Shown: positions 31,606 through 50,689, numbered from the stretch's first letter. The stretch: DNA of 64,000 bases from an uncultured SAR86 cluster bacterium (GCA_902513515.1 CABXNE010000001.1:41102-105101), one strand, 5' to 3'. Numbers and translations: made by a program. The notes: generated by a model from the letters alone, not told the origin.

Positions 31606-31682
31606 GGGCCTGTAGCTCAGTTGGTTAGAGCAGTGGACTCATAATCCATTGGTCGGAGGTTCGAGTCCTCCCGGGCCCACCA
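31606..31682 (+). tRNA. tRNA with CAU anticodon, most likely tRNA-Ile2 (lysidine-modified, AUA-decoding) rather than elongator tRNA-Met
   Basis: A 77-nt cloverleaf folds by hand: acceptor GGGCCUG/CGGGCCC + ACCA, D arm GCUC/GAGC, anticodon stem GUGGA/UCCAU with loop CUCAUAA, T arm GGAGG-UUCGAGU-CCUCC. The C4:G69 and C5:G68 pairs are the acceptor-stem determinants reported for TilS recognition of tRNA-Ile2. E. coli ileX also lies downstream of rpoD. Confidence 0.9.
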
Positions 31683-31702: not shown

Positions 31703-34147
31703 TTATCTAATGTTTATATTAAAACCCACATTAATTATCGGAGGCCTGTCTTCGAGATGTTTGATTGAAAGAAAAAATGGACCCCTATTAAGACTTAGCT
31801 CTCCATCAAAGTAGTTCATTTTTGGTTTTAAAGGGAACATGAGATTATTCTTAGATTCAAAGTAAAGAGAAGAAGGGAAATTTCTTTTTGAGGAGCTAAT
31901 TCCTATATACCCACTAAAGCCTAGAAGGGTGAATGGGTAATCTAGATCAATAAAGTAACTATGACTTTTTAGGTTTAATTTTTTAAAATCTATATTCTGA
32001 AAACTTCCAATATCTTTAAATGAGTCTACAAAAATTTTTTCATGCGCAATCCCAAAATTTAAAATCAAGTTGTTCAAAGCTGTCGATTGTTCAATAAATA
32101 CTGAAGCTGTTTTAAATTCTAATCTTGCAAATGAGCTTCCTAAAAAATTTACATTGTTAATATTTTTAGAATAATTATCTGAAAAAATTAAACCAGTTCT
32201 TGCTGAAAATATTTTTTTAGATATGCCAATAAAATTTCCGTGCAATTTTCCTTCAGATGAACCAGTAAATAATTTTATTTCGTCATTTAGAATTGAGTTA
32301 TAACCCAAAAGAAAAGATTCTCTTGTGTCTTTATATATAAAACTGCTGTTTCTTGAAACCCTTCTTACATGATTGTATTGGGCAACGGATGTCAGAATAC
32401 TATTTGAATAAATATTTCCCTTGGATAGAAAATTTTTTAATAAGTCTTCATTCAATGGATCTAAAACTTGAAAGAAATTTGTTGTACAAGAATCTCCAGA
32501 ACATTTTACATTTGAGCCAATAAAATCATAGTGGTACTTACCGTCTATCTCAACTGGCCATAATATTCTATCCTCATCTACATCAACAAAATCATCATAG
32601 AATCTGTAGGTATTATCTTCATTTAAAAGTACATAGGTTCTAGTATTTGAATCAATAATATCCAAATCACCATCATGGTCATAATCTACTATTCGTATTT
32701 TTCCTTGGCCAACCCAATAACTAGAGAAAGGATTTCCATTTGCATAAATAGAATAATCAGGATATTTTTCATTAGTTACATCTTCAAAGTTCTCCCCATT
32801 CATATTTCTGAAAAATTGAATTACTCTCGATTCATAATAAGGCTCATGAATAGTTGAAGCCATAACAATATCTACAAACCCATCATCATCAAAGTCAAAT
32901 GCCTCCATGTCATTAGCATTTCCATTTGAACCAAAGAAATTTGCAGGCAATTCAATAAAACCCAGTTGATTCCAATCATTAGATCCATTGTTTAGGTAAA
33001 CTGCTCCAGCACTATTTTCACTAAAACCATATAAAGCTGAGATCCGAGGGTTAAACCAGCCAAATGCAATATCTCCATAGCCATCATTATTAAAGTCAGC
33101 AATTACTGCAGTTGTTGGCCATAACTTGTCTATATTCGCTCCATGGTTATCGTAATCTACTGTTAACCATTCAAATTCAGGAAAATTATGATTTGCTTTG
33201 AAATTTCCCGAACCATCATTGATTAGCGCAGTAAAAGGTATATTTTGAGTGCATCCCGAGCATTCATCTATTTCTCCACCAAACAAGTATCCTGGCTTTG
33301 TGTTATCAAAGATTGGAACAAATATATCTAAATCACCATCATTATCTAGGTCGCCATGGGAAGCATCATGCGCAAAGATCTGCCCATGACCTTCTTCAAA
33401 AAATAAACTTGGTAAATTTGAGAGACTCTTATTCTCTAATTTTCCATTATTACTTAGATACAATATGCTTGTATCATAATAATCACTTATCCCATCCCCA
33501 TTAAAGTCAGCTACGATTTTTCCGTTAGAGTAGTCTTGTTGATTTCCGCATTCTTTTTTTGGGTCATTTGCATCTGTATTAAGCCAATTAGTTCCCCCAT
33601 GAACACATGGAAAGGTATTATTAAGGAATATTTCTGGGGATATTTGAAAATGACCATTACCATCGTTTAGAAAAGTGATCATGAGATCTTCGGGCATATA
33701 TTCTCTTGTTCCTATTGAATTGCCAACATATATCAAATCAGAAAACGCATCCCCATTTAAATTTGCTTCAAACCATTGTCCATTATTAACCCATGGACCA
33801 GATGTTGTAATTTCATCCTGATTAGAGCTATCACCTGGATGCAATCCTTTTGACGTAACTTGTAAGAAACCATAATCTTCTATTTTATATTTTTCGTTAG
33901 AAGGAAATTCATTAGAAGACCTAAATGCACTAGTGCCATAGGAATAAGTGACGTCTCCCCAAGGAGACTGCATTTTATTTTCAAATAGTTGAAATTCATA
34001 TCTTTGATCAACTATTGTCTGAGTGGGATTTATCAACTCATTAATTGGTTGAGGGCTAGAACCCCCCGTGCTTGAACATGATGAATTAATTATCAAGATA
34101 ATAGATATCTGGCATATAAGAGGATCTAAAATTTTTTTATTAAACAT
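31703..34147 (-). CDS. FG-GAP/VCBS repeat (beta-propeller) surface protein with a beta-rich C-terminal domain; possible lipoprotein
   Basis: 814 aa. N-terminal hydrophobic segment ending in Cys (IILIINSSC). At least six Ca-binding D-x-[DN]-x-D-G-x-x-D repeats (DFNGDGISD, DLDNDGDLD, DFNNDGYGD, DFDDDGFVD, DYDHDGDLD, NLNGDAFSD). The last approx 250 aa show an alternating hydrophobic pattern. Confidence 0.7.
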   Translation of the reverse strand: MFNKKILDPLICQISIILIINSSCSSTGGSSPQPINELINPTQTIVDQRYEFQLFENKMQSPWGDVTYSYGTSAFRSSNEFPSNEKYKIEDYGFLQVTSKGLHPGDSSNQDEITTSGPWVNNGQWFEANLNGDAFSDLIYVGNSIGTREYMPEDLMITFLNDGNGHFQISPEIFLNNTFPCVHGGTNWLNTDANDPKKECGNQQDYSNGKIVADFNGDGISDYYDTSILYLSNNGKLENKSLSNLPSLFFEEGHGQIFAHDASHGDLDNDGDLDIFVPIFDNTKPGYLFGGEIDECSGCTQNIPFTALINDGSGNFKANHNFPEFEWLTVDYDNHGANIDKLWPTTAVIADFNNDGYGDIAFGWFNPRISALYGFSENSAGAVYLNNGSNDWNQLGFIELPANFFGSNGNANDMEAFDFDDDGFVDIVMASTIHEPYYESRVIQFFRNMNGENFEDVTNEKYPDYSIYANGNPFSSYWVGQGKIRIVDYDHDGDLDIIDSNTRTYVLLNEDNTYRFYDDFVDVDEDRILWPVEIDGKYHYDFIGSNVKCSGDSCTTNFFQVLDPLNEDLLKNFLSKGNIYSNSILTSVAQYNHVRRVSRNSSFIYKDTRESFLLGYNSILNDEIKLFTGSSEGKLHGNFIGISKKIFSARTGLIFSDNYSKNINNVNFLGSSFARLEFKTASVFIEQSTALNNLILNFGIAHEKIFVDSFKDIGSFQNIDFKKLNLKSHSYFIDLDYPFTLLGFSGYIGISSSKRNFPSSLYFESKNNLMFPLKPKMNYFDGELSLNRGPFFLSIKHLEDRPPIINVGFNINIR

Positions 34148-34237
34148 TAGCTAAAATTTTAGGCTAAGGAGAGCTTTATGTATAAAAAAATACCATCATC
34201 ACTTCTTTTATCTACATCCCACGATTTAGGTTTAAGC

Positions 34238-35656
34238 TCATGGCATGATCACCGCTTTGGTCTCTAGGCATTCTTCTAAGCCATGAAGGCCATGTTCTCT
34301 GCCATTACCAGAAGATTTATAACCCCCAAAAGGCGCTCCTGTTCCTCTTGCTCCTCCATTTATGATGACTTGTCCAGCTCTAATCTTTCTTGCAACTTGA
34401 TTAGCATGAACAGGCTCACCTTGAACGTAGCCAGCCAACCCATATTCAGTATCATTGGCCATCTCAATCGCTTGCTCTTCTGAATTATATTTTAGAATTG
34501 ATAAGACTGGACCAAAAATTTCTTCTCTTGCAATGGTCATGTCATTGGTAACATTTGCGAATACGGTTGGTTTTACGTAATAACCCTTCTCATAACCCTC
34601 TGGCTTTTCAAGGCCTCCAGCAACTAAAGTTGCACCTTCCTCAATACCTATTTTGATCATTCTAAGGATCTTTTCATACTGAGGTTTGTTCGCAATAGGC
34701 CCAATTCTAAATTCTCCCCACGGATCACCAACAGTTGTACTATTTGCAGTTTGAGCAGCAACTTCAACAGCTTTCTCATAATTTTTCTCAGAAACCAACA
34801 TTTTTGTTGGTGCATTACATGACTGTCCTGAGTTTAAGAAGCAATGCCCGGCACCGCCCTTCACAGATTTTTCTAGATCAGCAACATCATCCAGAATAAT
34901 ATTTGAAGATTTTCCCCCAAGCTCTTGATGCACTCTTTTTACTGAAACGGCAGATGCTTGAGCCACTGCAATTCCGGCTTCAGTTGATCCTGTAAAAGAC
35001 ATCATGGCAACATCTGGATGGTCTGATAAGGCAGCTCCTACAATTGGACCGTATCCATTCACCACATTAAACACACCTGCTGGTACTCCAGCTTTATCAA
35101 ATATCTCGGCAAGCAGGAGTGCACAATATGGAGAAATTTCACTAGGTTTTAACACCATTGAACATCCTGCTGCAAGAGCGGCTGATGCTTTGGTAGTAAT
35201 TTGATTCATGGGCCAATTCCATGGCGTGATCATGCCTATTACACCAATAGGCTCTCTTATTAATGTGTAATCACCTTCTTTTTTTTCAAATTCATATTCT
35301 TTTAGAGCATCCAAAGTTTCATGTAAATTTTTAATTCCTGTTGATGCTTGAGCTTTCTGTGAAAGCCAGGTGGGGGCACCCATTTCTTCTGTGATAACTT
35401 GAACCAAATCATCGTACCGATTTTCGTATTCAGTAATAATATTATTTAAGATCTCAATTCGATTTTCCTTAGTTGTAAATTGATAGGTTTTAAAAGCATC
35501 AGATGCCACGGATACTGCTCGATCTATGTCATCTTTTGTGCCAGAAGCAACATGCCCTATGAGCTCTTCATTTGCTGGATTGATAATCTCAATTTTTTCA
35601 TTTGATTCTGATTCAACCCATTTACCGTTTATATAGAAATTTAATTTGTCTTTCAT
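34238..35656 (-). CDS. NAD(P)+-dependent aldehyde dehydrogenase
   Basis: 472 aa. ITPWNWP, FTGSTEAG, catalytic Glu in QELGGKS, catalytic Cys in NSGQSCNA, EEIFGPV. Confidence 0.9.
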   Translation of the reverse strand: MKDKLNFYINGKWVESESNEKIEIINPANEELIGHVASGTKDDIDRAVSVASDAFKTYQFTTKENRIEILNNIITEYENRYDDLVQVITEEMGAPTWLSQKAQASTGIKNLHETLDALKEYEFEKKEGDYTLIREPIGVIGMITPWNWPMNQITTKASAALAAGCSMVLKPSEISPYCALLLAEIFDKAGVPAGVFNVVNGYGPIVGAALSDHPDVAMMSFTGSTEAGIAVAQASAVSVKRVHQELGGKSSNIILDDVADLEKSVKGGAGHCFLNSGQSCNAPTKMLVSEKNYEKAVEVAAQTANSTTVGDPWGEFRIGPIANKPQYEKILRMIKIGIEEGATLVAGGLEKPEGYEKGYYVKPTVFANVTNDMTIAREEIFGPVLSILKYNSEEQAIEMANDTEYGLAGYVQGEPVHANQVARKIRAGQVIINGGARGTGAPFGGYKSSGNGREHGLHGLEECLETKAVIMP

Positions 35657-35741
35657 ACGAAGTCCTATTTATTTTATAGCAATCCTAACAAATTTTTTGT
35701 TTAAGTTGGTGCAATATTTGACCCAAAGTAGGCCCAAAGAA

Positions 35742-36941
35742 TTACCAAGAACGGGTAATCTGTATCGAGTCGCTAAGACTGCCGCTTGGCAATCCTAATG
35801 CCTTTGATATTTCTTCAAAAACGTCACTTATAAAGCCATTAGGTTCTATGTGACCAGCTTCAGGCGCCAATACCCCAGCCTGATTTATGCGACCTTCAGC
35901 TAGCATCTTAATGCCGCAAGCCAATGGGATGCCAGTAATTTCTCCCATGCCTATATTTTTAATTTTCTCATTCATATCTGGGTCTTCAGTATGGCTCGGC
36001 ATGCAAACTCCCACACTTGCTGGTATTTCATTTTTGATGCCACGAGCAAAACCATACATAGCCGGAGGATAATCAACGCCTTTAGTTCTCTTTTGAGTAG
36101 ATTGCTTGCTTTCTAGCAAAGAAAATAAATTAGCCGCCCTTAGCTTGCTTAGCAATCTTAAGTTTACTAAACCCATTATAGATTTAAGGATAAGAAAGTC
36201 AGCATGACCCCCATGGGCAAGATTGATTGAGTCTTTAAGTTTTGGAAAATAATGTGGAAAAGTTATTGCTTCAGGATGGCCAAATATATTCCCATTAAAA
36301 TTAGTTAATCCTGGGTAGTTGACGTTGATTTTCTGAAGAGGCTTGACCATTTTAAAAGCTCCATTTTGGAATACTTTGACTTGCCCCGTCATTTGCTCAA
36401 CTCCATGCATCATCGCTGCATTTTCAGATTGCTGCATTGCATTTTCATCTAGCGAGGTCCCACCAATGTCCCAACCGGTATAGACTGTAGTTACTTCATC
36501 TAATTCACGTATAGCGATGAGCGCCATCAAATTTGTTAGTCCAGGGCTTGCACCAAGCCCAATAGTTGCAGACACGCCAGCTGATTTGGCTTCAGCATCC
36601 AGCTTCATCATATCGATTGTAGGTTCCCAATCATCACATATATCTATGTAGTTACAACCTGAAGATATTGCAGCTCTAAGGATAGGAGATCCAAACTTAA
36701 AATAAGGACCACATGTATTTACAACAATATTGATATCTTCCATGGCTTGTTTTAGTGCGCTAGCATCATTGACATCAAGTTGAATTGAAGAAATTTTTTG
36801 ATTTAAACTTGCCGCAAAAAACTCAGCACTTTCTTTATTAACGTCGGCAATGATAATTTGATCAACAGAGCTAAAGTTTTGGGCTGCTCTCATGGCATAA
36901 CGACCCATGCTTCCACAACCACCTATTGCAAGTATTTTCAT
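35742..36941 (-). CDS. Saccharopine dehydrogenase family NAD(P)-binding protein
   Basis: 399 aa. KILAIGGCGSMGRY Rossmann start and GLGASPGLTNLMA segment typical of the bacterial saccharopine-dehydrogenase-fold family. Substrate not inferable. Confidence 0.75.
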   Translation of the reverse strand: MKILAIGGCGSMGRYAMRAAQNFSSVDQIIIADVNKESAEFFAASLNQKISSIQLDVNDASALKQAMEDINIVVNTCGPYFKFGSPILRAAISSGCNYIDICDDWEPTIDMMKLDAEAKSAGVSATIGLGASPGLTNLMALIAIRELDEVTTVYTGWDIGGTSLDENAMQQSENAAMMHGVEQMTGQVKVFQNGAFKMVKPLQKINVNYPGLTNFNGNIFGHPEAITFPHYFPKLKDSINLAHGGHADFLILKSIMGLVNLRLLSKLRAANLFSLLESKQSTQKRTKGVDYPPAMYGFARGIKNEIPASVGVCMPSHTEDPDMNEKIKNIGMGEITGIPLACGIKMLAEGRINQAGVLAPEAGHIEPNGFISDVFEEISKALGLPSGSLSDSIQITRSW

Positions 36942-37003
36942 AATTTACTCCAAACGTTATTCACTTTATTATTTGCTAATAAATAACTCAACAATTTTTA
37001 AAA

Positions 37004-38191
37004 ATGCATAAAGATATAGATATTATTATTTATGGGGCCACTGGGTTTACTGGAACCCTTTGTGTTAAATATTTTCAATCATTAAACACAACGGTGACGT
37101 GGGCAATAGCAGGAAGAAACTTAACAAAACTGCAGGAAGTTGCTCAAGATAATCAAACAAAAGTAGAAATTTTGATAGCTGATTCAGATGATGAAAGCGC
37201 TCTAGATAACATGACCTCAAGAGCAAGAGTAATCTTGTCTACAACCGGACCTTTTCATAGATATGGATCTAAATTGGTAGCATCATGCATCAAGAATCAT
37301 GCTCATTATGTAGACATTACAGGTGAAAACTTTTGGGTTAAGGGTTTAATAGGGAAGCATCATGCAGAGGCATCAGCAAAAGGAATTAGGATCATTCCGT
37401 CATGTGGATTTGACTCAATACCATCTGATTTAGGAACTTTTTTCTCAGCTAAAACCCTTGCAAAACCAATTAAAAGAATAGAATCATTTCATTCATATAA
37501 GGGAGGGGCATCAGGAGGAACCCTTGAGACAATGTTCTCTATGGGAGAATTAGATCTTGGCGATGATCTTACAGATCCATTTTTGCTTAATCCAAAAGAC
37601 TCTTATTCCGATGAGCAAAAGCAACTTAGCGGTGACAGAGTGGGCATTGCAAAAAAACTAGAAATTAGCGCATGGTCAGGACCTTTTATTATGGCCACCG
37701 CAAACACAAGAGTTGTAAGAAGAACAGAGGCCTTACTTGCATTAAGGCAGGAATCTTATGGATCTAATTTTACCTATCAAGAGCATGCCTTTCACAAGAG
37801 CTGGTTCAGTGCCGCCAAATCACTAATTCTGACAGGTCTATCTGTTTTGGTTCTTCTATCACCGCTAAAAAGATTGGTGAAACCTTTTTTGCCCAAGCCT
37901 GGAGAAGGGCCATCAGAAAGTGTTCAAGAGAATGGATGGTTTGATTGCAAATATATAGTTGAAACAGATGATGGAACTAAGTCGGTATTCAATATGAATG
38001 GTAAAGGAGACCCTGGTTATAAAGTGACCTCCAAACTAGTTTCTGAATGCGCACTTTGTTTAATTGAAGATGAAGATGCTCTTCCGGGTGGAAAAGAATA
38101 TGGAGGAGTTCTAACAAGTGCCTCAGGCCTGGGCAACCCATTAATTTCAAGGTTAAGTAAAGTAGGTATAAATTTTGAGGGCCCACTTTAA
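37004..38191 (+). CDS. Saccharopine dehydrogenase-like oxidoreductase (SCCPDH / trans-acting enoyl reductase-like)
   Basis: 395 aa. IIIYGATGFTGTLCVKY..WAIAGRN N-terminus and SCGFDSIPSDLG motif characteristic of SCCPDH-like proteins. Confidence 0.75.
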   Translation: MHKDIDIIIYGATGFTGTLCVKYFQSLNTTVTWAIAGRNLTKLQEVAQDNQTKVEILIADSDDESALDNMTSRARVILSTTGPFHRYGSKLVASCIKNHAHYVDITGENFWVKGLIGKHHAEASAKGIRIIPSCGFDSIPSDLGTFFSAKTLAKPIKRIESFHSYKGGASGGTLETMFSMGELDLGDDLTDPFLLNPKDSYSDEQKQLSGDRVGIAKKLEISAWSGPFIMATANTRVVRRTEALLALRQESYGSNFTYQEHAFHKSWFSAAKSLILTGLSVLVLLSPLKRLVKPFLPKPGEGPSESVQENGWFDCKYIVETDDGTKSVFNMNGKGDPGYKVTSKLVSECALCLIEDEDALPGGKEYGGVLTSASGLGNPLISRLSKVGINFEGPL

Positions 38192-38245
38192 TTTTTTGAT
38201 TATATAATTTAATCTAAAAATTAAAAATCTTTTCAAGAATCAAGC

Positions 38246-38758: not shown

Positions 38759-38873
38759 TTTATTAATGACACTTCTTTTCAAATTATTTTTGCTGAAAAG
38801 TTAAAATTCTGGAGACTAGATAATTATTATAGTAAGTTAAAATGAATTATTTAATGTAAAAAACAAGATATGC

Positions 38874-40559
38874 ATGATACTTACTAACAAAGATAGAATT
38901 GAAGATTATATAAATAAAGGATGGTGGGGTGAAGATACATTATATTCTTTATTTCAAGAGGCTATAGTTTTATGCGGCGATCAAGAAGCCCTTGTTGACC
39001 CAGAAAATCGCAAAACAATTACAGGTGATGCTCCAAAGAGGCTATCTTTTAACGAGATCAATGTAACTGTTGAGAGATATGCAACTATTTTTTATGAGCA
39101 GGGGCTCAGAAAGGACGATATCGTTATCATACAATTACCAAATGTTGTAGAACTACCAATAGTCTATTTAGCACTATCAAAACTTGGAATAGTTTGCTCT
39201 CCGATTCCAATGCAATATGGTGCATTTGAGATTACTAGCATTATCAATGAGACCAATCCAAGGGCCTTTGTTAGTATTTCAAAATTCAGCGATAAGGCTC
39301 ACGCCAAGCAATTTTCTTCGTTATTTACTAAAGATGAAATTAAATTTTCATTAGGTGCAGTCGATGGTTTTGTTGATCTAAATACATCAAATCCTTCAAG
39401 CGAACTCATGGAAAGTCAGCAATTGTATGCAAAGGATAACCCCATCACAGCAGATGATATTTTTACCATTTGCTGGACTTCAGGAACTACTGGTACTCCA
39501 AAAGGTGTTCCGCGCAGTCACAACCTTTGGTTGCCAATGGCTAAAGCTGCTGCATTTGTATCAGAAACTGAGCAGGGTGATACATTACTCAACCCTTTTC
39601 CAATGATTAATATGGCAAGCATCGGAGGATTCTTGTTTAACTGGTTACTATGCAAGGGAAAGCTTGTTCAACATCATCCTTTTGATCTCAATGTTTTCCT
39701 GACTCAAATTTCTAGCGAGAACATTAAATACACAATTGCACCTCCTGCAATCATGAATATGCTACTTAATAATCCAGCCATCCTTGATCAACAGAATTTG
39801 AGCAGCTTGAGATGCATAGGATGTGGAGGGGCGCCGCTCTCAGAGTGGATGGTTGAAACCTTTCAAAATAAATATGATCTAACAGTTCAAAATATTTTTG
39901 GATCTAATGAGGGGGCAACGTTGCTCAGTGCTCGAAATGAAATTGAGGACCCAAACTTAAGAGCGAAATATTTCCCTCGTTTTGGAGTAGATGGACTGGA
40001 TTGGAGCAATCCAGTTTCAAGGTTGGTAAAAACAAAATTAGTTAGTGTTGAGACTAATGAGGAAATACTAGAGCCAGAGCAGCCTGGCGAACTTCTTATT
40101 TCTGGTGCAACTGTTTTTGATGGTTATTGGAATGCTCCTGAGGCAAACGCAGAAGTTTTCGATGAAGATGGCTATTTCAGGACTGGGGATTTATTTGAGA
40201 TTTCTCCAGATGACACGGAAAAAAGATATTATAAATTTTGCGGCAGATGCAAAGATCTTATTATTAGGGGTGGAATGAATATTTCTCCAGAGGAGTTAGA
40301 CAGCCTTCTTAGCTCGCATCCAAAAATGTTAGAGGTCGCTGTAACTGGTTATGATGATGAAATTTTGGGAGAAAAAGTAGGAGTTGTTGCAGTAGTTGTT
40401 GAAGGCGAAACATTAACTTTAGATGAAGTCATTGAATTTTTAAAAGATAAGCAAATTGCAAAATATAAAATGCCTGAGGACTTGAGGGTTATAGATGTAT
40501 TACCAAAAAATCCTGTGGGTAAAGTTTTAAGACGCGAACTAAAAGATTTATTTAATTAA
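38874..40559 (+). CDS. AMP-dependent synthetase/ligase (acyl-CoA synthetase, ANL superfamily)
   Basis: 561 aa. A3 motif WTSGTTGTPKGV, A5 GSNEG, A8 FRTGD..RCKDLIIRGGMNISP, A10 PKNPVGKVLR. Confidence 0.85.
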   Translation: MILTNKDRIEDYINKGWWGEDTLYSLFQEAIVLCGDQEALVDPENRKTITGDAPKRLSFNEINVTVERYATIFYEQGLRKDDIVIIQLPNVVELPIVYLALSKLGIVCSPIPMQYGAFEITSIINETNPRAFVSISKFSDKAHAKQFSSLFTKDEIKFSLGAVDGFVDLNTSNPSSELMESQQLYAKDNPITADDIFTICWTSGTTGTPKGVPRSHNLWLPMAKAAAFVSETEQGDTLLNPFPMINMASIGGFLFNWLLCKGKLVQHHPFDLNVFLTQISSENIKYTIAPPAIMNMLLNNPAILDQQNLSSLRCIGCGGAPLSEWMVETFQNKYDLTVQNIFGSNEGATLLSARNEIEDPNLRAKYFPRFGVDGLDWSNPVSRLVKTKLVSVETNEEILEPEQPGELLISGATVFDGYWNAPEANAEVFDEDGYFRTGDLFEISPDDTEKRYYKFCGRCKDLIIRGGMNISPEELDSLLSSHPKMLEVAVTGYDDEILGEKVGVVAVVVEGETLTLDEVIEFLKDKQIAKYKMPEDLRVIDVLPKNPVGKVLRRELKDLFN

Positions 40560-41791
40560 GCAGTTCCAACAACAAAACTAACAACCGTTGTAGCACTACC
40601 GCCGATATTTAAGGTTGATATGTTTTTTGCGTTTTCAATTTGGTAGTCACCAGCACTATTAGTACATTGTTTATAGCAATCAAGTAGCATTCTGACACCT
40701 GTCGCACCCACCGGATGCCCTAAACCTATTAGACCGCCACTTGCATTAATTGGAATCTTTCCACCAATCTCTATTTCACCTAATTCAATAGCTTTCCAGC
40801 TTTCTCCAGGCTTTGTAATACCAAAATGATCAATCGCCATGTATTCGGTTGATGTAAAGCAGTCATGAGTTTCAATGCCATCAATGTCTGTTACCCCCTT
40901 CATCCCTGCTCTTGAAAAAGCGTCGTCAATAGCCCTTTTTACATGCGGAAAGACGTAATCTTTTTCCTGACTAAAATCGATTTTTTCTTGATATGTAATT
41001 GGACCAGTTTTATGACCCCAGCCTTTGATATAAGGAATTGATTTAATATCTATTGATCTTGCTTTTGCATATTCTTTAGCTTTTTTTTCACTTGCTAAGA
41101 AGATAATAGCTGCACCGTCAGTTACCTGACCACAATCCATTTTTCTGGTCCGACCTTCAATTACAGGGTTTGCGTTATCTGATCTTGTAAAAGTATCTGA
41201 TTCAAAAGTCCATCCTCTAGTTTGAGAGTTTGGATTTTTCTTAGCATTGGCAAAGTTAATTTCTGAAATTTTCGAGAGATGATCTTCATTGATGCCATAT
41301 CTTTTATCATATTCATTAGTAAGCTCACTGAACATATGAGGCCATGGGTATTGCACACCTTGGCATTCAAAACCAGATCGCATTGCAGGGCCCCCAATAT
41401 TTTGAGCGGCCTGTTCTCCTGAAACATTTCTCATTTGTTCAATTCCCAATACTGCAGCTAGTTCGTATCTGCCTGATTCAATTTCAGCGCATGCTGCTAA
41501 CGTTGCAATGCTCCCTGAAGCGCAAGCTGCCTCATGTCTTGAGGAAGGCAGTCCAAAAAAATCTGGATGAGAAGAGACAAAAAAACCACCCAAATGACCT
41601 TGGTTACAAAATAATTCAGCTGTGAAATTGCCAACATGGGCAACATCAATATCTTGAGGTTCCAAATCAACAGATGTTAATCCTTGATGGATTGTTTCTT
41701 GGAATACATCCAAAAGATCCAATTCATTTCTATGCCAATTTTGGGCAAAGTCAGATTGATAGCCCCCCAAAATGTAAACTCGTTCTTGCAT
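40556..41791 (-). CDS. SCP2/SCPx-type thiolase
   Basis: 411 aa. Nucleophile Cys in EAACASGS, an HDCF motif (THDCFTST) in place of NEAF, GGLIGLGHPVGATG. These fingerprints match SCP2-type thiolases. Confidence 0.8.
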   Translation of the reverse strand: MQERVYILGGYQSDFAQNWHRNELDLLDVFQETIHQGLTSVDLEPQDIDVAHVGNFTAELFCNQGHLGGFFVSSHPDFFGLPSSRHEAACASGSIATLAACAEIESGRYELAAVLGIEQMRNVSGEQAAQNIGGPAMRSGFECQGVQYPWPHMFSELTNEYDKRYGINEDHLSKISEINFANAKKNPNSQTRGWTFESDTFTRSDNANPVIEGRTRKMDCGQVTDGAAIIFLASEKKAKEYAKARSIDIKSIPYIKGWGHKTGPITYQEKIDFSQEKDYVFPHVKRAIDDAFSRAGMKGVTDIDGIETHDCFTSTEYMAIDHFGITKPGESWKAIELGEIEIGGKIPINASGGLIGLGHPVGATGVRMLLDCYKQCTNSAGDYQIENAKNISTLNIGGSATTVVSFVVGTA

Positions 41792-41893
41792 TCATTAATT
41801 ATATGCATGATTGCTCAACATTCAAAAGAATAACCTAGGCGAGTAAATATATAAGAGTTGTAATAAACTTAAATAAGGATTTTTACTACGCAT

Positions 41894-42796
41894 ATGCAAA
41901 ATAATAAATTAATCGATCAATTACGATTGCCTGTAATCGTAGCTCCTATGTTTCTAGTTTCTGGACCTGAATTAGTGATAGCCAGCAGCAACGCAGGATT
42001 GGTTGGATCTTTTCCAGGACCTAATGCGAGAACAATTGAGGAGCTTGAGGAGTGGATGGAGCAAATCAGTAGCTCTACATCAAATCCATGGGCATTTAAT
42101 ATGATCACTCACAAGACCTATGATCGATTTTCAGGGGAATTAGACTTAATTAAAAAATTTCAGCCTCAAATTGTAATCACTGCTTTAGGTAGTCCCGAAA
42201 GAGTTATAGATGCAGTGCATGCTTATGGAGGCAAGGTAATAGCTGATGTTAATAATATTAATTTTGCTCGCCGCTGCGCTGAAATGAATGTCGATGGCAT
42301 GGCTCTTATTTGTCATGGAGCAGGGGGCCATACTGGATCTCTCTCCCCATTCTCATTCACAGCATATGTAAGAGAGTTTTTTGATGGGCTTATAGTTTTA
42401 GCTGGCTCAATTTCTACCGGACACCATATTAGAGCAGCTAAATTATTAGGCGCAGATCTTAGTTATATGGGTACAAGGTTTATTTCAGCTAAAGAGAGTA
42501 ATGCAGTTGATGAATATAAATCCATGATTATTAATTCAACTTACGATGATTTAAGAATGACCAACCTTTTTACCGGAGCGGAAGCCTATTATCTAAAAGA
42601 CAGCATCATTAAAAACAATTTAGATCCAGATAATCTGGACTCAAATACTGATGGTTTTAATGTTTCTGCCTCACAAGATAAGATTAAGGCATGGAAAGAC
42701 ATTTGGTCAGCAGGACAGGGCGTTGGTTTAATTAAAAATATAGAAAGCGTAGAATCTATAGTAGAGAAACTTGAATCTGAGTTCTTGCAGGGGTAG
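41894..42796 (+). CDS. Nitronate monooxygenase (NMO/2-nitropropane dioxygenase) family FMN enzyme
   Basis: 300 aa. PVIVAPMFLVSGPELVIASSNAGLVGSF N-terminus and TIM-barrel FMN family pattern (GHTG, GTRF). Confidence 0.8.
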   Translation: MQNNKLIDQLRLPVIVAPMFLVSGPELVIASSNAGLVGSFPGPNARTIEELEEWMEQISSSTSNPWAFNMITHKTYDRFSGELDLIKKFQPQIVITALGSPERVIDAVHAYGGKVIADVNNINFARRCAEMNVDGMALICHGAGGHTGSLSPFSFTAYVREFFDGLIVLAGSISTGHHIRAAKLLGADLSYMGTRFISAKESNAVDEYKSMIINSTYDDLRMTNLFTGAEAYYLKDSIIKNNLDPDNLDSNTDGFNVSASQDKIKAWKDIWSAGQGVGLIKNIESVESIVEKLESEFLQG

Positions 42797-42799
42797 AGC

Positions 42800-44254
42800 A
42801 TGGAAACTAAGAAAACAAATACCGTTCAATCTTCAATTAAAACCCATGATCATCCATATCTGAAGGATGCATGGGTGCCTAATTACGATGAGTATGAAGT
42901 AACTGATTTAAAAGCGCTGGGTGATATTCCTGAGGACATAGAGGGGGCTTACTATAGAAATACTGAAAACCAGGTTCATGAACCTATTGGTCGCTTTCAT
43001 CCTTTTGATGGGGATGGAATGATCCATTCAATTAATTTTGACAATGGCAAAGCAAATTATGTAAATAAATTTATTCGAACCGAAGGATTTTTAGTTGAAC
43101 AGCAAATGGGAAAATCAATGTGGGCTGGTCTCATGGAGAGAACAGGCTCATCTATGCTTCCTGGATGGGGTGCGCAAGGTGGAATTAAAGACTCATCCTC
43201 AACTGATATTATTGTTCATGGAGGAGAGCCGCTTTCAACATTTTATCAATGTGGAGAGGGCTATCAATTAGACCCTTACACATTAGAAACTCAAAATAAA
43301 GCATCATGGGTACCTTCAGGAGGCTTATCAGCCCATCCAAAAGTTGATTTGGCAACAGGCGAACTTTTATTTTTTAATTATTCAAAACATGCCCCATTTT
43401 TAAACTACGGAGTGGTTGATAAAAATAAAAATCTAAATCACTTTATTCCAGTCGAACTGCCTGGTCCAAGACTGCCTCATGACATGGCGTTTAGCAACAA
43501 TTATTCGATTATTAATGATTTACCTCTTTTTTGGGATCAGGAGATGCTTAAGAAAGGAATTCATGCCACAAGATTGCATGACTTGCCTTCAAGATTTGCA
43601 GTGATTCCTAGATATGGAAATCCTGAGGACATCAAGTGGTTTGAAGCTGACCCAACTTATGTACTGCATTGGAATAACGCTTATGAGGTTGGCGATGAGT
43701 TGATATTAGAGGGATATTTTCAAGAACACCCGTGGCCAGAAAACTATGTCGATGCACCACCAGGGCTTGAGCGTATGATGGCTTTTTTAGATTTCTCTCT
43801 GTTAAAACCTAGGCTACATAGATGGAAATTTAACTTAAAAACAGGAGTTACAACTGAAGAAGATATTTGCAATGAAACAATAGAGTTTGGTGTGATCAAT
43901 CAGCGTATTGCAGGCATAGAGCATAGATACACTTATAGTATGGTCCCCACGAAGGGTCATTTCACTTTTGATGGGATCACCAAACATGATCATCAAAAAA
44001 GCTCTTTCAGTAAATATATTTTCCCAGAGCATATTTTTATTAGTGAAGTTAGTTTTGCACCCAAAACAGTTGCAGTTGATGAAGATGATGGTTACTTAGT
44101 AACTATCAGCAATGATGTTAGAGAGAAGACCTCATCCTGTTTGTTATTTGATGCAAAAAATATTGAGCAGGGACCAGTTTGTGACATTCCTTTACCACAC
44201 CAGATATGCTCTGGTACCCATGCTACCTGGGCTCAAAAAAGCGATTTAAAATAG
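42800..44254 (+). CDS. Carotenoid cleavage oxygenase family protein (lignostilbene-alpha,beta-dioxygenase-like)
   Basis: 484 aa. FDGDGMIHS motif. The four Fe-ligand His contexts are present (SAHPKVD, PHDMAFS, LHWNNAYE, GTHATW). Several blocks are colinear with my memory of Sphingomonas lignostilbene dioxygenase (GKS, DPYTLET, FDAKNIEQGP). Confidence 0.85.
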   Translation: METKKTNTVQSSIKTHDHPYLKDAWVPNYDEYEVTDLKALGDIPEDIEGAYYRNTENQVHEPIGRFHPFDGDGMIHSINFDNGKANYVNKFIRTEGFLVEQQMGKSMWAGLMERTGSSMLPGWGAQGGIKDSSSTDIIVHGGEPLSTFYQCGEGYQLDPYTLETQNKASWVPSGGLSAHPKVDLATGELLFFNYSKHAPFLNYGVVDKNKNLNHFIPVELPGPRLPHDMAFSNNYSIINDLPLFWDQEMLKKGIHATRLHDLPSRFAVIPRYGNPEDIKWFEADPTYVLHWNNAYEVGDELILEGYFQEHPWPENYVDAPPGLERMMAFLDFSLLKPRLHRWKFNLKTGVTTEEDICNETIEFGVINQRIAGIEHRYTYSMVPTKGHFTFDGITKHDHQKSSFSKYIFPEHIFISEVSFAPKTVAVDEDDGYLVTISNDVREKTSSCLLFDAKNIEQGPVCDIPLPHQICSGTHATWAQKSDLK

Positions 44255-44261
44255 TAGATTG

Positions 44262-45461
44262 ATGAATCCTGTTTACATTGTTGATTCAATTAGGACGCCT
44301 AGAGCCCGAGCCAATCAGAAAGGTGGGCTGAATAAGTTGAATCCATATGAATTATTGGATTTTTTATATAAGGATATTGAAAAGAAAAATTTCTTAAATT
44401 TAAATTTTATTGATGAGGTGATATTAGGTTGCGTCACTCAGTATGGTGAGCAAGCAGGCAATATTGCGAAAACTTCGACATTATTTTCTGGGTACCCAGA
44501 TTCAATTTCAGGCCTTACTGTGAACAGATTTTGTTCTTCAAGCTTGGATGCAATAAATCTTGGCCATTTAAAAATTCAATCTCAGCAAGCGGATAATATT
44601 ATTGCTGGTGGAGTGGAAATGATGTCTAGGGTGCCCATGCTCTCTGATGAAGCAGCAATTTGGAATGACATCAAGATAGCTGGTCAAGCAAAGATTTTTT
44701 TAATGGGTAGTGGGGCTGACCTGATAGCTAGTCTTTTTAATATCTCTAGAGATGACGTAGATATACAGGCATTAAAATCACAGCAGAATGCCTTAAATGC
44801 TCAAAAAAATAATCACTTTAAGTCTATTATCCCAGTAATCAATAAGGCCAAATCGATTCATTGTGTTGAGGATGAATGCATAAGACCAGATACAAGTATT
44901 GAAAGCTTGGCTTTATTGGACCCAAGTTTTAAAAAACTAGGAGAGCAGGGGATAGATAAAGCGCAGTTAAATCTTTTTCCTGAACTGAAAGAAATTTTAC
45001 ATGTACACACCGCAGGTAATTCTCCTGCAATGGCAGATGCGGCATCCATGACATTGCTATCAAATAAAAAAATTCAGGAAAATGGTAAGAAGGCACGTGC
45101 AAAAATTATTTCCGTTGTAACCGTTAATGATGATCCGTTATTAGTGTTATCAGGCTGTATGTTGGCCACACAAAAAATACTTGAACAAAATAAACTCCAA
45201 GTTGCAGATGTAGATTTATTTGAGATACATGAAGCTTTTGCCTCGACTATGATTCATTGTCAGCAAGAATTAAATATAGACGATGAAAAACTAAACGTTA
45301 ATGGTGGCTGCATTGCTCTTGGTCATCCCATGGGAGCGACTGGTTCCATCATGATGTCGACATTGATTGATGAGCTAGAAAGACAAGATCTAGCTATTGG
45401 TATTGTTGCCACCAGCGGAGCAGCTGGAGCTGGCACAGCTATTTTAATCGAAAGATTGTAG
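44262..45461 (+). CDS. Thiolase-fold acetyl-CoA C-acyltransferase-like protein with variant active site
   Basis: About 399 aa from the ATG at 44262 (the track uses TTG at 44259). Nucleophile Cys in NRFCSSS, HEAF instead of NEAF, NGGCIALGHPMGATG. The C-terminal CxG motif reads S-G-A (ATSGAAGAG). Confidence 0.85.
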   Translation: MNPVYIVDSIRTPRARANQKGGLNKLNPYELLDFLYKDIEKKNFLNLNFIDEVILGCVTQYGEQAGNIAKTSTLFSGYPDSISGLTVNRFCSSSLDAINLGHLKIQSQQADNIIAGGVEMMSRVPMLSDEAAIWNDIKIAGQAKIFLMGSGADLIASLFNISRDDVDIQALKSQQNALNAQKNNHFKSIIPVINKAKSIHCVEDECIRPDTSIESLALLDPSFKKLGEQGIDKAQLNLFPELKEILHVHTAGNSPAMADAASMTLLSNKKIQENGKKARAKIISVVTVNDDPLLVLSGCMLATQKILEQNKLQVADVDLFEIHEAFASTMIHCQQELNIDDEKLNVNGGCIALGHPMGATGSIMMSTLIDELERQDLAIGIVATSGAAGAGTAILIERL

Positions 45462-45463
45462 GC

Positions 45464-45503
45464 AAAAAAAGCCCCGCTATATAGCGGGGCTTTTTGGGTT
45501 TTT
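45464..45503. terminator. Bidirectional Rho-independent terminator between the convergent thiolase and TonB-dependent receptor genes
   Basis: Perfect 8-bp GC-rich stem GCCCCGCT (45471-45478) / AGCGGGGC (45483-45490) with a 4-nt loop. It is flanked by A7 (45464-45470) on one side and TTTTTGGGTTTTT (45491-45503) on the other. Confidence 0.85.
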
Positions 45504-45519
45504 GCTTAACTTAACTAGA

Positions 45520-47808
45520 TTAAAAATTATAATCTAACTTAATAGTGATATTTCTTGGCCGATCATAGATTGCATCATATGCAAGTCCATCTAAGGCTCC
45601 ACCAGAGGCAAGTCTTACAAATGTTCTTGCTAGTGGAATTGTTCCACCAACAACTTTTATTCGTTCGTCTGTTAGGTTATCGCCAATAAGCGATACTCTC
45701 CACCTACCATCTGAACTTTCTAGACCAAGCACTAGACCAACTTTTGAATAACCCCCTTCTTCGATATTTTTATCTAAGTTAGTCGTTATATAGTATTCAG
45801 ATGAATAATCAACATTTAGGTTAGCATCAAAGACCCAGTTATTTGAAAGCACTGTCTCATAGTCAAAACCTATATTTCCTGTATCTTCAGGTGCAAAGAT
45901 TACACTAGCGCCAGACCTGTCACAATAAATACCATTGGTAGGAGCTTCTCCATAAGCGCACTGGCTATTTTTCCAATCAGTAAATTCATAATTGAGGCTT
46001 GCAAGAGACGCATAAAACTCTAAGCCGTCTGAGAGCAGATATCTTCCTTGCATCTCAAATCCATCTAATTCTGCAGCTGAAGCATTTCCCACTTTGAAGC
46101 CTAGAACACCATCAAACACACTTGTTTGCAGGTCATCGTACTCTGTAGTGAAGTAGGTAAAGTCAAATTGGGCTCTATCAGACTTCATCTTGTATCCCCA
46201 TTCGATATTAGTTGCTTCTTCTTCTTCAAATTCCCAGCCACCAGCACTTGAGATAAGTGGTGTACCAGGTACTGAATTACCTCGAATATCAAAGCCTCCA
46301 GCTTTTGAGCCTTCTGTGTATGACACATACATTTGAGAGTCATCCGATAGCTCATAGCTCAATCGAACCATTGGATCAAATGAGTTTTCGCTTCTGCTAC
46401 TAGCAACGTTATGAGGACCAACGTTTAAGACAGCTCCCCATAAAACATTCAGCAAGGGTGAGTTTGCAAGCGCTGTACCTGTTCCATCTAATGTCAGTTT
46501 TCTGCTTCCATCTTTATCTTCACTTGAGTATCTAGCTCCAACAGTTAAGTTCCAGTTACCCTGTAAATTGACATCAGCTTGACCAAACACAGAATACATA
46601 TCAGATGATTGTGCATAAAGCCTGTCCCAATTTGTTCCAACAAGCAAAGAAACTGGAGGACCGGCAAGAGCTAAGAAGGAGCCTAATGGAACATAGTCTG
46701 TGACATCAACATCTGCAGTTTGAAAATAAGCACCAATGATGTAGTCAACATCTTCACCGCCAGCAGAGGTATAACGAATTTCTTGAGACCATTGATCATA
46801 TTTTTCTGTTTGATTTGTTCCATCAAGAATCTCTAAACCAACATAGTCAACATCTAGGACCTCATAGGAATCATATTCAACATGCCCAGTAATTGAGGTT
46901 AATGTACCACCACCATCCATTGGGTAGTTAGCAGTTAACACGAAGTTATCCATTGTATTTTGACTGAAAGTTTCTCCACTAGATCTAACCCAATCTTCAT
47001 TTGTCTCAACGGCAATTGGACCTGCAAAAACAAGACCGTACCCATCTTGAGGAGCTATTGCCTCCATGGCATATCCTACTGAGTCAAAATCAGCTGTTTC
47101 AACCTTAAGATTGTAGTCAACATCACCAGATGTCCAGGCAAGTTGGCCTCTAATATATGTTTCATCTCTTTGCGGTTCCAATCTTTTCATTCGTTGATTG
47201 GTAATCCACCCATCCATTTCTCTAGTTGAAATGGTCAATCTTCCAAGTAAATTGTCAGAAAGTGGCCCTGATAACACTAAGAGTGATTGGGATTCATCAT
47301 GCTCGGATTCATGAGAGGTAGAAAATTTACCCTCAAATTCATCAGTTGGTTTTGCAGAAGTAACACTAACAACACCACCGACGGCATTTTTACCAAATAG
47401 AGTTGGCTGCGGTCCACGTAGTACCTCAACCCTTTGCAAATCAACAAGCGGCGTTCTAGCTAATTGACTTCTAGGATAAGTAATCCCATCAAAGTTCAAT
47501 GGAACAGATTGCTCAAACCCTTTATTGGCTCCAGATCTAACGCCTCTAATAGAAATTGATGTGTCAATTTGAGTTTCAGCAACATAAAAGTTTGGCACGG
47601 ATGCTGAAAGTGATTGAAGATTATCAACACTTCTATCCTCAATAGCCTCACCATCAATGGCAGAAACAGAAATAGGTACATCTTGAAGGCTTTGCTCTCT
47701 TATTTGTGCTGTCACAACAACTTCTTCGAGAGTTTGCGCAAAGGTTGAAGGCGCCACACTAAATAAAATAGCCGCAAAGAGCATATTAAAAAAATTTTTG
47801 GTTAACAT
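45520..47808 (-). CDS. TonB-dependent outer membrane receptor
   Basis: 762 aa. Signal peptide ending TFAQ, TonB-box-like EEVVVTA, plug motifs (VEVLRGPQPTLFGKNAVGGVV), long beta-barrel, C-terminal aromatic (..LDYNF). GGAG Shine-Dalgarno 7 nt upstream. Confidence 0.9.
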   Translation of the reverse strand: MLTKNFFNMLFAAILFSVAPSTFAQTLEEVVVTAQIREQSLQDVPISVSAIDGEAIEDRSVDNLQSLSASVPNFYVAETQIDTSISIRGVRSGANKGFEQSVPLNFDGITYPRSQLARTPLVDLQRVEVLRGPQPTLFGKNAVGGVVSVTSAKPTDEFEGKFSTSHESEHDESQSLLVLSGPLSDNLLGRLTISTREMDGWITNQRMKRLEPQRDETYIRGQLAWTSGDVDYNLKVETADFDSVGYAMEAIAPQDGYGLVFAGPIAVETNEDWVRSSGETFSQNTMDNFVLTANYPMDGGGTLTSITGHVEYDSYEVLDVDYVGLEILDGTNQTEKYDQWSQEIRYTSAGGEDVDYIIGAYFQTADVDVTDYVPLGSFLALAGPPVSLLVGTNWDRLYAQSSDMYSVFGQADVNLQGNWNLTVGARYSSEDKDGSRKLTLDGTGTALANSPLLNVLWGAVLNVGPHNVASSRSENSFDPMVRLSYELSDDSQMYVSYTEGSKAGGFDIRGNSVPGTPLISSAGGWEFEEEEATNIEWGYKMKSDRAQFDFTYFTTEYDDLQTSVFDGVLGFKVGNASAAELDGFEMQGRYLLSDGLEFYASLASLNYEFTDWKNSQCAYGEAPTNGIYCDRSGASVIFAPEDTGNIGFDYETVLSNNWVFDANLNVDYSSEYYITTNLDKNIEEGGYSKVGLVLGLESSDGRWRVSLIGDNLTDERIKVVGGTIPLARTFVRLASGGALDGLAYDAIYDRPRNITIKLDYNF

Positions 47809-47932
47809 ATTTTCTCCATGAAAAAATAAAATATAAAAAGTGCTTTAATGATAACCAAAAAGTTTAGATCTGACTATTTTTTTACTCATAAGTAAATATT
47901 TATTATTTCTTTGCAAGGCATGTTTATAGGCA

Positions 47933-48964: not shown

Positions 48965-50641
<1,677 letters not shown>

Positions 50642-50658
50642 TTAGTTCTGCGTGGTAT

Positions 50659-50677: not shown

Positions 50678-50689
50678 TTTCATGTTAAT

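Follow-up and report, generated by a model that had tools for sequence, protein, structure and literature searches.

An uncultured SAR86 cluster bacterium furnished the 64,000-nt stretch of DNA analyzed here (GCA_902513515.1 CABXNE010000001.1:41102-105101; the whole stretch is called the window hereafter), which carries at positions 31703-47808 a block of 11 genes, among them one for an enzyme of the carotenoid-cleavage-oxygenase (CCO) family. We find that five genes of this block, coding for an ANL-family CoA ligase, an SCP2-type thiolase, an NMO-family FMN protein, the CCO and a FadA-like thiolase (thl2), belong to a real conserved gene cluster: orthologs of the partners are co-localized across distant lineages despite rearrangement, and the version in the window is a streamlined subset of a larger cluster found in many marine and other Proteobacteria. 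Judging from sequence, we propose, at a little below even odds (a probability of roughly 45%), that these genes specify a pared-down, CoA-dependent module that breaks down fragments of isoprenoid polyenes, namely apocarotenoids or xanthophylls. An earlier note on the window had read all 11 genes as one tRNA-flanked accessory set for the uptake, oxidative cleavage and CoA-dependent breakdown of a methyl-branched polyene or a stilbenoid; its observations are confirmed in part, and its interpretation is likewise partly supported.

The evidence for the cluster comes from a neighborhood census covering 98 related loci and the window (individual loci are cited by their L numbers), with the gene families anchored on real gene calls. 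This anchoring was needed because simple open reading frame (ORF) calling with a codon-position GC filter misled in high-GC contigs, where the real CCO gene was outranked by its own antisense shadow ORFs. The five families recur together, in shuffled order, in other SAR86 clades, Woeseia, Elongatibacter and high-GC contigs. The CCO orthologs of Woeseia, Elongatibacter and many high-GC contigs are 55-61% identical to that of the window, and the partners encoded within 10 kb of this orthogroup show identities of 60-77% (SCP2-type thiolase, the most conserved partner), 45-70% (NMO), 42-64% (ANL) and 44-69% (thl2), in lineages whose GC content spans 34-72%. Of the CCO lineage groups, 20 have flanks of 6 kb or longer; two or more of the ANL, NMO, SCP2-type thiolase and thl2 genes accompany the CCO in 8 of these, and three or more in 4. 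When the SCP2-type thiolase was instead taken as the seed, a CCO lay within 10 kb in four of seven neighborhoods; the suggested link of the CCO to CoA-dependent enzymes thus stands. Of the co-occurrence of CCO, NMO, thiolase, ANL and the TonB-dependent receptor (TBDR), which the earlier note had proposed as a check, that of the first four is seen across lineages, whereas the CCO-linked TBDRs of other lineages are only 25-30% identical to that of the window (29-30% for those of the extended clusters described below).

Around this core the composition of the cluster varies considerably. In the sister SAR86 clade (65-68% CCO identity) the gene order is ANL, SCP2-type thiolase, HxlR, DUF1295, NMO, CCO, thl2, SnoaL/LEH, Old-Yellow-Enzyme, SDR and hydantoinase B/A, with HxlR and DUF1295 sitting in the gap between the SCP2-type thiolase and NMO genes (L031, L032, L036, L037 and L038). 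As relatives carry HxlR, the absence of a regulator from the window, correctly reported for the block itself, represents a secondary loss in the clade. A third SAR86 type (L017/L099) has TBDR, luciferase-like, ECH, ANL, SCP2-type thiolase, CCO and thiolase genes; adjacency of the CCO to a thiolase is retained in all SAR86 clades. The order in Woeseia is CCO, NMO, DUF1295, HxlR, thiolase, ANL, DSBA, SCP2-type thiolase and a FAD enzyme, and Elongatibacter and several high-GC contigs add SnoaL/LEH, SDR, ACAD and TBDR genes. An extended cluster of about 20 kb, with or without a CCO, comprises DUF1295, HxlR, an amine-oxidase/CrtI-superfamily FAD protein, a thiolase, ANL, a DSBA-fold protein, the SCP2-type thiolase, a Tannase-family esterase, NMO, a major facilitator superfamily (MFS) transporter, a small alpha/beta-hydrolase, a TBDR and a second FAD protein; CrtI-superfamily FAD proteins, PhyH and HMG-CoA reductase all occur in such extended clusters. 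The CCO is repeatedly accompanied by three ene-reductase families, SDRs and LEH/SnoaL proteins, and DUF1295 and/or HxlR are present in most of the 20 CCO lineage groups, being commoner neighbors of the CCO than the thiolases.

Several side observations attach to these neighborhoods. Unusually, the regulator of the cluster carries two HxlR domains in tandem within about 315-335 aa (e.g., L015 13475-14434 and L101 4113-5060); it matches a redox-sensing transcription-factor model, and a gene for a DUF1295 membrane protein (steroid-5-alpha-reductase-like) is its constant partner. The sister-clade extension (SnoaL/LEH, an Old-Yellow-Enzyme ene-reductase, SDR and hydantoinase B/A) is seen at L036 5603-11902, in L032 and in a JGI 114-kb contig; its hydantoinase B/A genes are of the family of acetone/acetophenone carboxylases and oxoprolinases, a hint of methyl-ketone carboxylation, and hydantoinase B is also found near the cluster in L102. 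Many Woeseia-like contigs of 55-60% GC (L015, L042-L062) place the CCO ortholog beside genes for neutral-lipid synthesis, i.e., a wax-ester synthase/DGAT and a GPAT-type acyltransferase. In the unrelated L068 (GC 0.69), gltB-gltD adjoin DUF1295-HxlR-CCO-SCP2-type thiolase, to be compared with the TBDR-hemE-gltD/gltB junction of the window (47933-55150); this might be a coincidence or an old linkage.

Within the window, the NMO, CCO and thl2 genes form an operon, with gaps of 3 nt (NMO-CCO) and 4 nt (CCO-thl2) and a terminator after thl2. This terminator is a bidirectional hairpin with a perfect 13-bp stem (AAAAAGCCCCGC-TATA-GCGGGGCTTTTT) flanked by A and T runs. The active-site motifs are intact in the CCO, both thiolases, the ligase and the ALDH. 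The SCP2-type thiolase has its nucleophile at Cys90 (CASG) and HDCF at 309 in place of NEAF, as expected of the SCP2-type class, and it is the only protein of the block to exceed an NCBIfam equivalog cut-off (NF004936); its best PDB matches are the Leishmania and zebrafish SCP2-thiolases. The motifs of thl2 (FCSSS92 with Cys92, HEAF324 and GGCIALGHP349) are those of degradative thiolases, and its best PDB match is FadA Rv0859 of M. tuberculosis (1.4e-91). The NMO protein, FabK-like by its best PDB match, falls well short of the FabK enoyl-ACP reductase II family (TIGR03151, 105 bits against a cut-off of 453). The ANL ligase matches FadD13, DhbE and 4CL in the PDB with about equal scores and the FadD3 model with 212 bits against a cut-off of 657, FadD3 being one of many ANL models matched. 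A promoter-like site (TTGAAT-16-TATAAT, minus strand, 41825-41798) lies in the divergent region between the SCP2-type thiolase and NMO genes; the promoter scan gave 51 sites against 60 expected from shuffles, and we claim no promoters.

The CCO aligns with the Pfam RPE65 profile (PF03055) over residues 27-478, corresponding to profile positions 3-468 of 469, with 355 bits against a cut-off of 27. Its iron ligands, His179, His227, His290 and His474, lie in the motifs AHPK, PHDMAF, LHWNNA and GTHATW, are invariant in 13 orthologs and align with the His motifs (AHPK/HD/H/H) of CCD1 and LsdA; this full set of ligands, like the HDCF motif of the thiolase, had been recognized before and is indeed intact. 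Among solved structures, the CCO comes closest to a CCD1-type carotenoid 9,10-dioxygenase (9m6z; 9e-51, 176 bits, near full length), followed by the lignostilbene-alpha,beta-dioxygenases (LSDs) of Pseudomonas and Sphingomonas (1e-36 to 1e-40), and then by Synechocystis ACO (about 1e-34, about 122 bits) and VP14. In the LSDs, the catalytic Tyr101 and Lys134 hydrogen-bond the 4-hydroxyl of the substrate (PMC8191317). The corresponding positions are Leu111 and Tyr149 in the window CCO and Ile and Ser in CCD1; Phe59 of the LSDs is kept as Phe69, a residue general to CCOs. Scores against the models for stilbene-cleaving enzymes are likewise far below their cut-offs (NF053778, 185 bits versus 800; NF053780, 171 versus 650), as is that for the 13,14-cleaving apo-carotenoid oxygenases (NF052295, 172 versus 675). 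As the Tyr101/Lys134 pair is absent, we reject a stilbene-cleaving, LSD-like reading of the CCO, and the stilbenoid substrate offered earlier as an option is disfavored on the same grounds. The CCO thus appears to be a non-stilbene enzyme nearest to the CCD1-type carotenoid 9,10-dioxygenases. It shares with the CCD1/NosCCD-type 9,10(9',10')-dioxygenases of plants and cyanobacteria the RPE65 fold, the four His and non-phenol residues at the LSD hydroxyl-binding positions. However, the similarity is moderate (176 bits) and the regiospecificity of the window CCO only putative, and CCD1 makes volatile signals and aroma compounds and forms no operon with thiolases and CoA ligases. The LSDs of the Sphingobium SYK-6 DCA/stilbene pathway resemble it in being bacterial catabolic CCOs, in a pathway whose aldehydes pass via an aldehyde dehydrogenase (ALDH) to central metabolism; they differ in the Tyr101/Lys134 pair and in that their pathway lacks an SCP2-thiolase, NMO and ANL module.

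Pointing towards an isoprenoid polyene are the CCD1-type best match of the CCO, its lack of the LSD residues, the NF004936 thiolase and the recurring ene-reductases, SDR and LEH proteins; the CrtI-superfamily FAD proteins, PhyH and HMG-CoA reductase of extended clusters are hints in the same direction. SCP2-type/SCPx thiolases act on 2-methyl-branched acyl-CoAs. The methyl pattern of carotenoids is such that cleavage at 9,10 or 11,12 leaves the chain methyls on alpha carbons, so that beta-oxidation can run, whereas after 15,15' cleavage a beta-methyl group blocks it; a regiochemistry like that of CCD1 is therefore appealing, if speculative. We envisage the following scheme. An apocarotenoid or a (de-esterified) algal xanthophyll would be taken up across the outer membrane, and the CCD1-like CCO would cut a conjugated C=C of the isoprenoid polyene. 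The carbonyl fragments would then be oxidized or reduced as needed, with the FabK-like FMN reductase of the NMO family saturating enone or enoyl bonds, assisted in relatives by the additional DUF1295/5-alpha-reductase-like, Old-Yellow-Enzyme, SDR and NTF2/LEH-like enzymes. The ANL ligase would activate the resulting acid to its CoA ester. Finally, the SCP2-type thiolase would act on 2-methyl-branched 3-ketoacyl-CoAs to release propionyl-CoA and the FadA-like thiolase on unbranched ones to release acetyl-CoA. SAR86 has the methylcitrate cycle for propionyl-CoA and specializes in lipid degradation via TonB receptors (PMC3358033); hence, it can use the propionyl-CoA that the SCP2-type thiolase would release.

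Two known systems offer partial parallels for such a scheme. Peroxisomal pristanic-acid beta-oxidation likewise uses an SCP2-type HDCF thiolase for 2-methyl-branched isoprenoid acyl-CoAs beside a conventional thiolase, but SCPx is eukaryotic, fused to an SCP2 domain and without a CCO, and a branched preference of the bacterial NF004936 family is putative. Actinobacterial degradation of steroid rings C/D (HIP) employs the ligase FadD3, the NMO-family enoyl-CoA reductase IpdC and the thiolase FadA6. The module similarly unites members of these three enzyme families, and its relatives add SDR, ACAD and NTF2-like proteins, which suggests CoA-dependent breakdown of alicyclic or branched terpenoids; however, the module has no IpdAB, EchA20 or FadE30, and the steroid pathway has no CCO.

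Convergent with thl2 and transcribed on its own lies the TBDR gene, and a possible connection to the module is suggested by a neighboring esterase. Directly downstream of the orthologous TBDR, and on the same strand, SAR86E and UBA3413 encode a secreted protein of the Tannase/feruloyl-esterase family (Pfam 7e-89; L003 12666-14120, minus; L008 6934-8457, minus); the window genome has no such gene after its TBDR, only a 58-bp gap. This esterase is 41% identical over its full length to that of the extended clusters, which also hold a TBDR, and the same family adjoins the SCP2-type thiolase in Woeseiaceae-type clusters. The pairing of TBDR and tannase-family esterase in both the extended clusters and SAR86E leads us to retain the receptor in part despite its low identity. 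As SAR86 genomes encode 19-33 TBDRs per 1.25-1.7 Mb (PMC3358033), chance adjacency to the module is not negligible. On balance, the TBDR is probably a companion of the module and a possible uptake component.

Expression was gauged from assembled marine metatranscriptome contigs. RNA contigs from four runs cover the TBDR gene end to end (45496-47816, depth 5-11) and end at 45496-45504, at the terminator; the transcript appears monocistronic and not joined to the upstream hemE. In these four assemblies no other gene of the region is nearly as well represented as the TBDR, which exceeds rpoD. Near-exact RNA contigs of the sister clade, drawn from four runs, lie over NMO, thl2, SnoaL and the 5' end of the CCO gene, at low depth and with DNA carry-over possible; one bridges NMO-CCO (L036 2842-3066) and another thl2-SnoaL (5541-5691), which fits an expressed operon.

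A number of findings weigh against the proposed breakdown of isoprenoid polyenes. About half of the CCO lineages with adequate flank have none or one of the partners, often DUF1295 alone, and three of the seven thiolase-seeded neighborhoods, which are Woeseiaceae-type extended clusters, have no CCO within 10 kb; the CCO may therefore be an optional feeder and not the center of the module. The module has no co-conserved ALDH, enoyl-CoA hydratase or 3-hydroxyacyl-CoA dehydrogenase, which leaves the chain of cleavage, oxidation, activation and beta-oxidation incomplete; the earlier succession of CCO, ALDH and ligase likewise lacks a conserved ALDH. The CCO is only modestly close to CCD1 (176 versus 140 bits), and similarity of this order does not establish which bond is cleaved. 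The CrtI-like matches in the extended clusters reduce to the FAD-binding motif and uncharacterized PDB entries, and we do not rely on that assignment. In the window's clade, the stretch from the SCP2-type thiolase through NMO and CCO to thl2 has no contig in any indexed RNA run. Lastly, the esterase resembles MHETase (2e-51) and feruloyl esterase B (2e-41), and the MFS transporter and small hydrolase are weakly of aromatic type; all of these fit an aromatic ester as well or better.

This last point feeds the alternative that survives best, in which the CoA-dependent module is the same and its substrate is non-isoprenoid, i.e., an aromatic or phenylpropenoid acid ester or another alkenyl compound; we consider it unlikely. 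The substrate would enter via the TBDR and be hydrolyzed by the tannase-family esterase; the acid would be imported, in relatives by the MFS transporter, and activated by a 4CL-like ligase, after which its side chain would be reduced and thiolyzed, with the CCO as an optional cleaver of vinyl or propenyl groups. Beyond the esterase, it draws on the weak matches of the MFS protein to aromatic-acid:H+ symporters, the 4-hydroxyphenylacetate permease and MhpT, on that of the small hydrolase to 3-oxoadipate enol-lactonase (PcaD), on the even scores of the ANL ligase against 4CL, aryl-acid and fatty-acyl ligases, and on the DSBA-fold protein before the SCP2-type thiolase in many clusters. The latter we take to resemble 2-hydroxychromene-2-carboxylate isomerase. 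Further, Freel et al. (bioRxiv 10.1101/2024.03.17.584874) propose that SAR86 specializes in aromatic and polycyclic compounds. However, the CCO lacks the phenol-binding Tyr/Lys pair of the characterized stilbene-cleaving LSDs and scores higher against the carotenoid 9,10-dioxygenase than against them; the MFS and small-hydrolase family matches are far under the curated cut-offs; the window block contains no esterase, MFS, PcaD-like or DSBA member; and unbranched phenylpropanoid side chains need no SCP2-type thiolase. As a separate observation, a DSBA-fold protein encoded at 12918-13526 (minus strand) of the window, 27 kb from the module and divergent from an SDR gene, is 25-31% identical to that directly before the SCP2-type thiolase in Woeseia-type clusters, and could be a dispersed member of the module.

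A more ambitious form of the isoprenoid proposal, which we regard as improbable, would have the module be part of an undescribed bacterial route that mineralizes the carotenoids of algae: uptake of xanthophylls or their esters through a TonB receptor would be followed by de-esterification and CCD1-like cleavage, and the methyl-branched polyene and ionone-type fragments would be processed as CoA esters to acetyl- and propionyl-CoA, with the same oxygenase also yielding retinal in proteorhodopsin-bearing SAR86. Retinal alone figures in another alternative, already raised in the earlier note, by which the CCO would mainly make the chromophore of proteorhodopsin from scavenged carotenoids or apocarotenoids, in the manner of Synechocystis ACO (Diox1), with its neighbors being unrelated lipid genes or disposing of the non-retinal fragment. 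Synechocystis ACO is likewise a prokaryotic enzyme of the CCO family, and such a role would fill an evident gap: SAR86, including SAR86E, has proteorhodopsin and lacks carotenoid and retinal biosynthesis (Dupont et al. PMC3358033; SAR86E genome note PMC3569297). Freel et al. (bioRxiv 10.1101/2024.03.17.584874) annotate the family as apo-carotenal 15,15'-oxygenases and as a possible source of retinal, predicting them across Magnimaribacteraceae and in some RedeBAC7D11 genomes, without describing the gene context. The intact active site and missing stilbene-binding residues of the CCO also agree with it. Yet the same authors found the genes in SAR86 genera devoid of proteorhodopsin and suggested an alternative function on that account. 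The CCO orthologs of Woeseia, Elongatibacter and the high-GC contigs, the apparent co-transcription of the CCO with a reductase and a thiolase, and its co-conservation with CoA enzymes across orders all argue in the same direction; ACO is not the nearest solved relative (about 122 versus 176 bits), the CCO reaches no NCBIfam equivalog, and there is no proteorhodopsin gene among the genes of the 64-kb window. Retinal supply as the main function, though we retain it, is therefore weakened to a doubtful prospect. The least probable alternative, by which HxlR-DUF1295-NMO would be a detoxification unit for enals, enones or quinones, the ligase and thiolases would serve general beta-oxidation, and the CCO would be an independent if frequent neighbor brought close in the window by genome compactness, can appeal to the predominance of DUF1295 and HxlR as CCO neighbors, the redox-sensing model matched by HxlR, the density of beta-oxidation genes and TBDRs in SAR86 genomes (PMC3358033) and the detection of TBDR but not CCO operon transcripts in the assemblies examined, but chance adjacency does not predict the shuffled recurrence of 42-77% identical partners with the CCO in very different genomes, nor does it sit well with the NMO-CCO-thiolase operon spacing and the sister-clade RNA contigs that cross gene junctions.

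The searchable literature yielded no described pathway or cluster with this composition of CCO, NMO, thiolase or DUF1295 (the mycobacterial "lipid island" is unrelated), as the earlier note had suspected, and no bacterial catabolic pathway for carotenoids or apocarotenoids. What is new is thus a recurrent combination of known enzyme families for which no pathway has been described. A CCD review (PMC5133782) calls the roles of these oxygenases in bacteria "not well established", and SAR86 is among the most abundant bacteria of the surface ocean, its possession of proteorhodopsin without retinal synthesis having been a gap since 2012. Setting the SAR86 CCO in a conserved CoA-dependent module that also occurs in Woeseia, Elongatibacter and many further bacteria turns a doubtful single-gene annotation into a testable pathway hypothesis. 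If true, it would reveal a sink for one of the largest biogenic pigment pools and clarify whether SAR86 phototrophy relies on scavenged carotenoids; beyond gene content and conservation, all of this is conditional, including which class of substrate is used, in what order the steps run, what the TBDR does and whether the subclade-specific ALDH, SDH1, SDH2 and CIA30 take part.

Turning to the block as a whole (Table 1), the 11 ORFs were recovered at the coordinates first given and Pfam reproduced every domain call. Its low GC content of about 35% is that of the window, which is core chromosome of a SAR86-clade gammaproteobacterium placed near SAR86E (its CCO shares 94-96% identity with the proteins of SAR86E and of AG-313-A10, a single-cell genome). 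The left flank (ruvX, dnaG, rpoD and the tRNA) and the right flank (hemE and gltD on the minus strand, gltB on the plus strand) are housekeeping genes and so are the remaining genes of the window, which are not, as had been supposed, Pseudomonas-type blocks.

Table 1. Features of the block and its left boundary; positions are counted from the first letter of the 64,000-nt window
Feature	Length	Position	Strand	Evidence and remarks
tRNA, anticodon CAU		31606..31682	+	ARAGORN; Rfam tRNA 75.5 bits; left boundary, after dnaG-rpoD
FG-GAP repeat protein, lipoprotein-like N-terminus	814 aa	31703..34147	-	Pfam FG-GAP_3 1.5e-14
NAD(P)-dependent aldehyde dehydrogenase (ALDH)	472 aa	34238..35656	-	Pfam Aldedh 4e-149; Cys280 intact
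Saccharopine-dehydrogenase-fold NAD(P) oxidoreductase SDH1	399 aa	35742..36941	-	Pfam Sacchrp_dh_NADP 4e-17
Second saccharopine-dehydrogenase-fold protein SDH2	395 aa	37004..38191	+	Pfam Sacchrp_dh_NADP 2e-12
CIA30-domain protein, secreted	170 aa	38246..38758	+	Pfam CIA30 5.6e-19; hydrophobic N-terminus; upstream of ANL ligase
ANL-family acyl/aryl-CoA ligase	561 aa	38874..40559	+	Pfam AMP-binding 6.5e-59; SGTTGTPKG motif
SCP2-type thiolase	411 aa	40556..41791	-	Pfam Thiolase_C_1; NF004936 (PRK06289) 637 bits vs cut-off 375
Divergent intergenic region between SCP2-type thiolase and NMO	102 bp	41792..41893	.	HxlR + DUF1295 here in sister SAR86 clade
NMO-family FMN protein, FabK-like	300 aa	41894..42796	+	Pfam NMO 8e-27, 95 bits vs cut-off 28; PDB FabK 5e-23
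Carotenoid-cleavage-oxygenase family enzyme (CCO)	484 aa	42800..44254	+	Pfam RPE65 1e-105; four His ligands
Degradative FadA-like 3-ketoacyl-CoA thiolase (thl2)	400 aa	44259..45461	+	Pfam Thiolase_N/C; TIGR01930 338 bits vs cut-off 240
Bidirectional intrinsic terminator hairpin		45466..45495	.	Terminator scan; between convergent thl2 and TBDR
TonB-dependent receptor (TBDR)	762 aa	45520..47808	-	Pfam Plug + TonB barrel

A genomic-island reading of the block can be rejected. ARAGORN found no second tRNA in the whole window, so the block is bounded by a tRNA on the left side only and is not tRNA-flanked, and for Rfam the tRNA is the sole element in it. The GC content of the block is the same as that of its flanks, with no compositional island, and Pfam and NCBIfam profile searches detected no integrase or transposase, regulator or inner-membrane transporter in it, in agreement with the earlier note. 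Further, all sampled relatives (13 SAR86 species representatives and 11 metagenome contigs) keep strict synteny from ALDH to TBDR-hemE-gltD-gltB. Only the FG-GAP gene is variable. Nor do the 11 genes form one set: gaps and strands divide them into at least five transcription units, with the terminator as one of the divides, and the module proper comprises five or six genes (38874-45461 for the core). The block consists of four layers, namely the strain-specific FG-GAP gene, the subclade-specific ALDH, SDH1, SDH2 and CIA30 genes, the core module and the separately transcribed TBDR.

The FG-GAP gene is an insert at the tRNA, outside the module, and the lowest-GC part of the block (0.32-0.33). 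In the closest relative, L001, the tRNA is kept, homology with the window stops just past its 3' end, and the slot between tRNA and ALDH holds an unrelated 157-aa ORF (L001 898-1440); tblastn found no match to the FG-GAP gene in L001, L005, L009 or L011. Given that nucleotide homology with L001 breaks after the tRNA and that the FG-GAP gene is missing there, the term "accessory" suits one gene, not eleven. The ALDH, SDH1, SDH2 and CIA30 genes accompany the CCO only in the window's SAR86 subclade (79-100% CCO identity). For the ALDH, which reaches no NCBIfam equivalog cut-off and for which an exact-sequence look-up gave no record, location beside the module is confined to SAR86 clade-1 loci and one case of 35% identity in L086; it is a plausible helper of the module. 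SDH1, whose cluster is restricted to SAR86 clade 1, resembles PDB entries only weakly, namely saccharopine reductase and carboxyspermidine dehydrogenase; SDH2, divergent from it across a 62-bp gap, gave no match in a PDB sequence search. About 2 kb of extra DNA separates SDH2 from CIA30 in L002, L003 and L013, which in L003 (SAR86E) is a gene for a secreted S9-family peptidase (2399-4378, minus strand); SDH2 and the CIA30-ANL pair are therefore not an obligate operon. Elsewhere in the window, a 772-aa ORF without a Pfam match (10591-12909, minus strand) occupies the position of lptD upstream of surA-pdxA-ksgA-apaH and probably codes for a highly divergent LptD.

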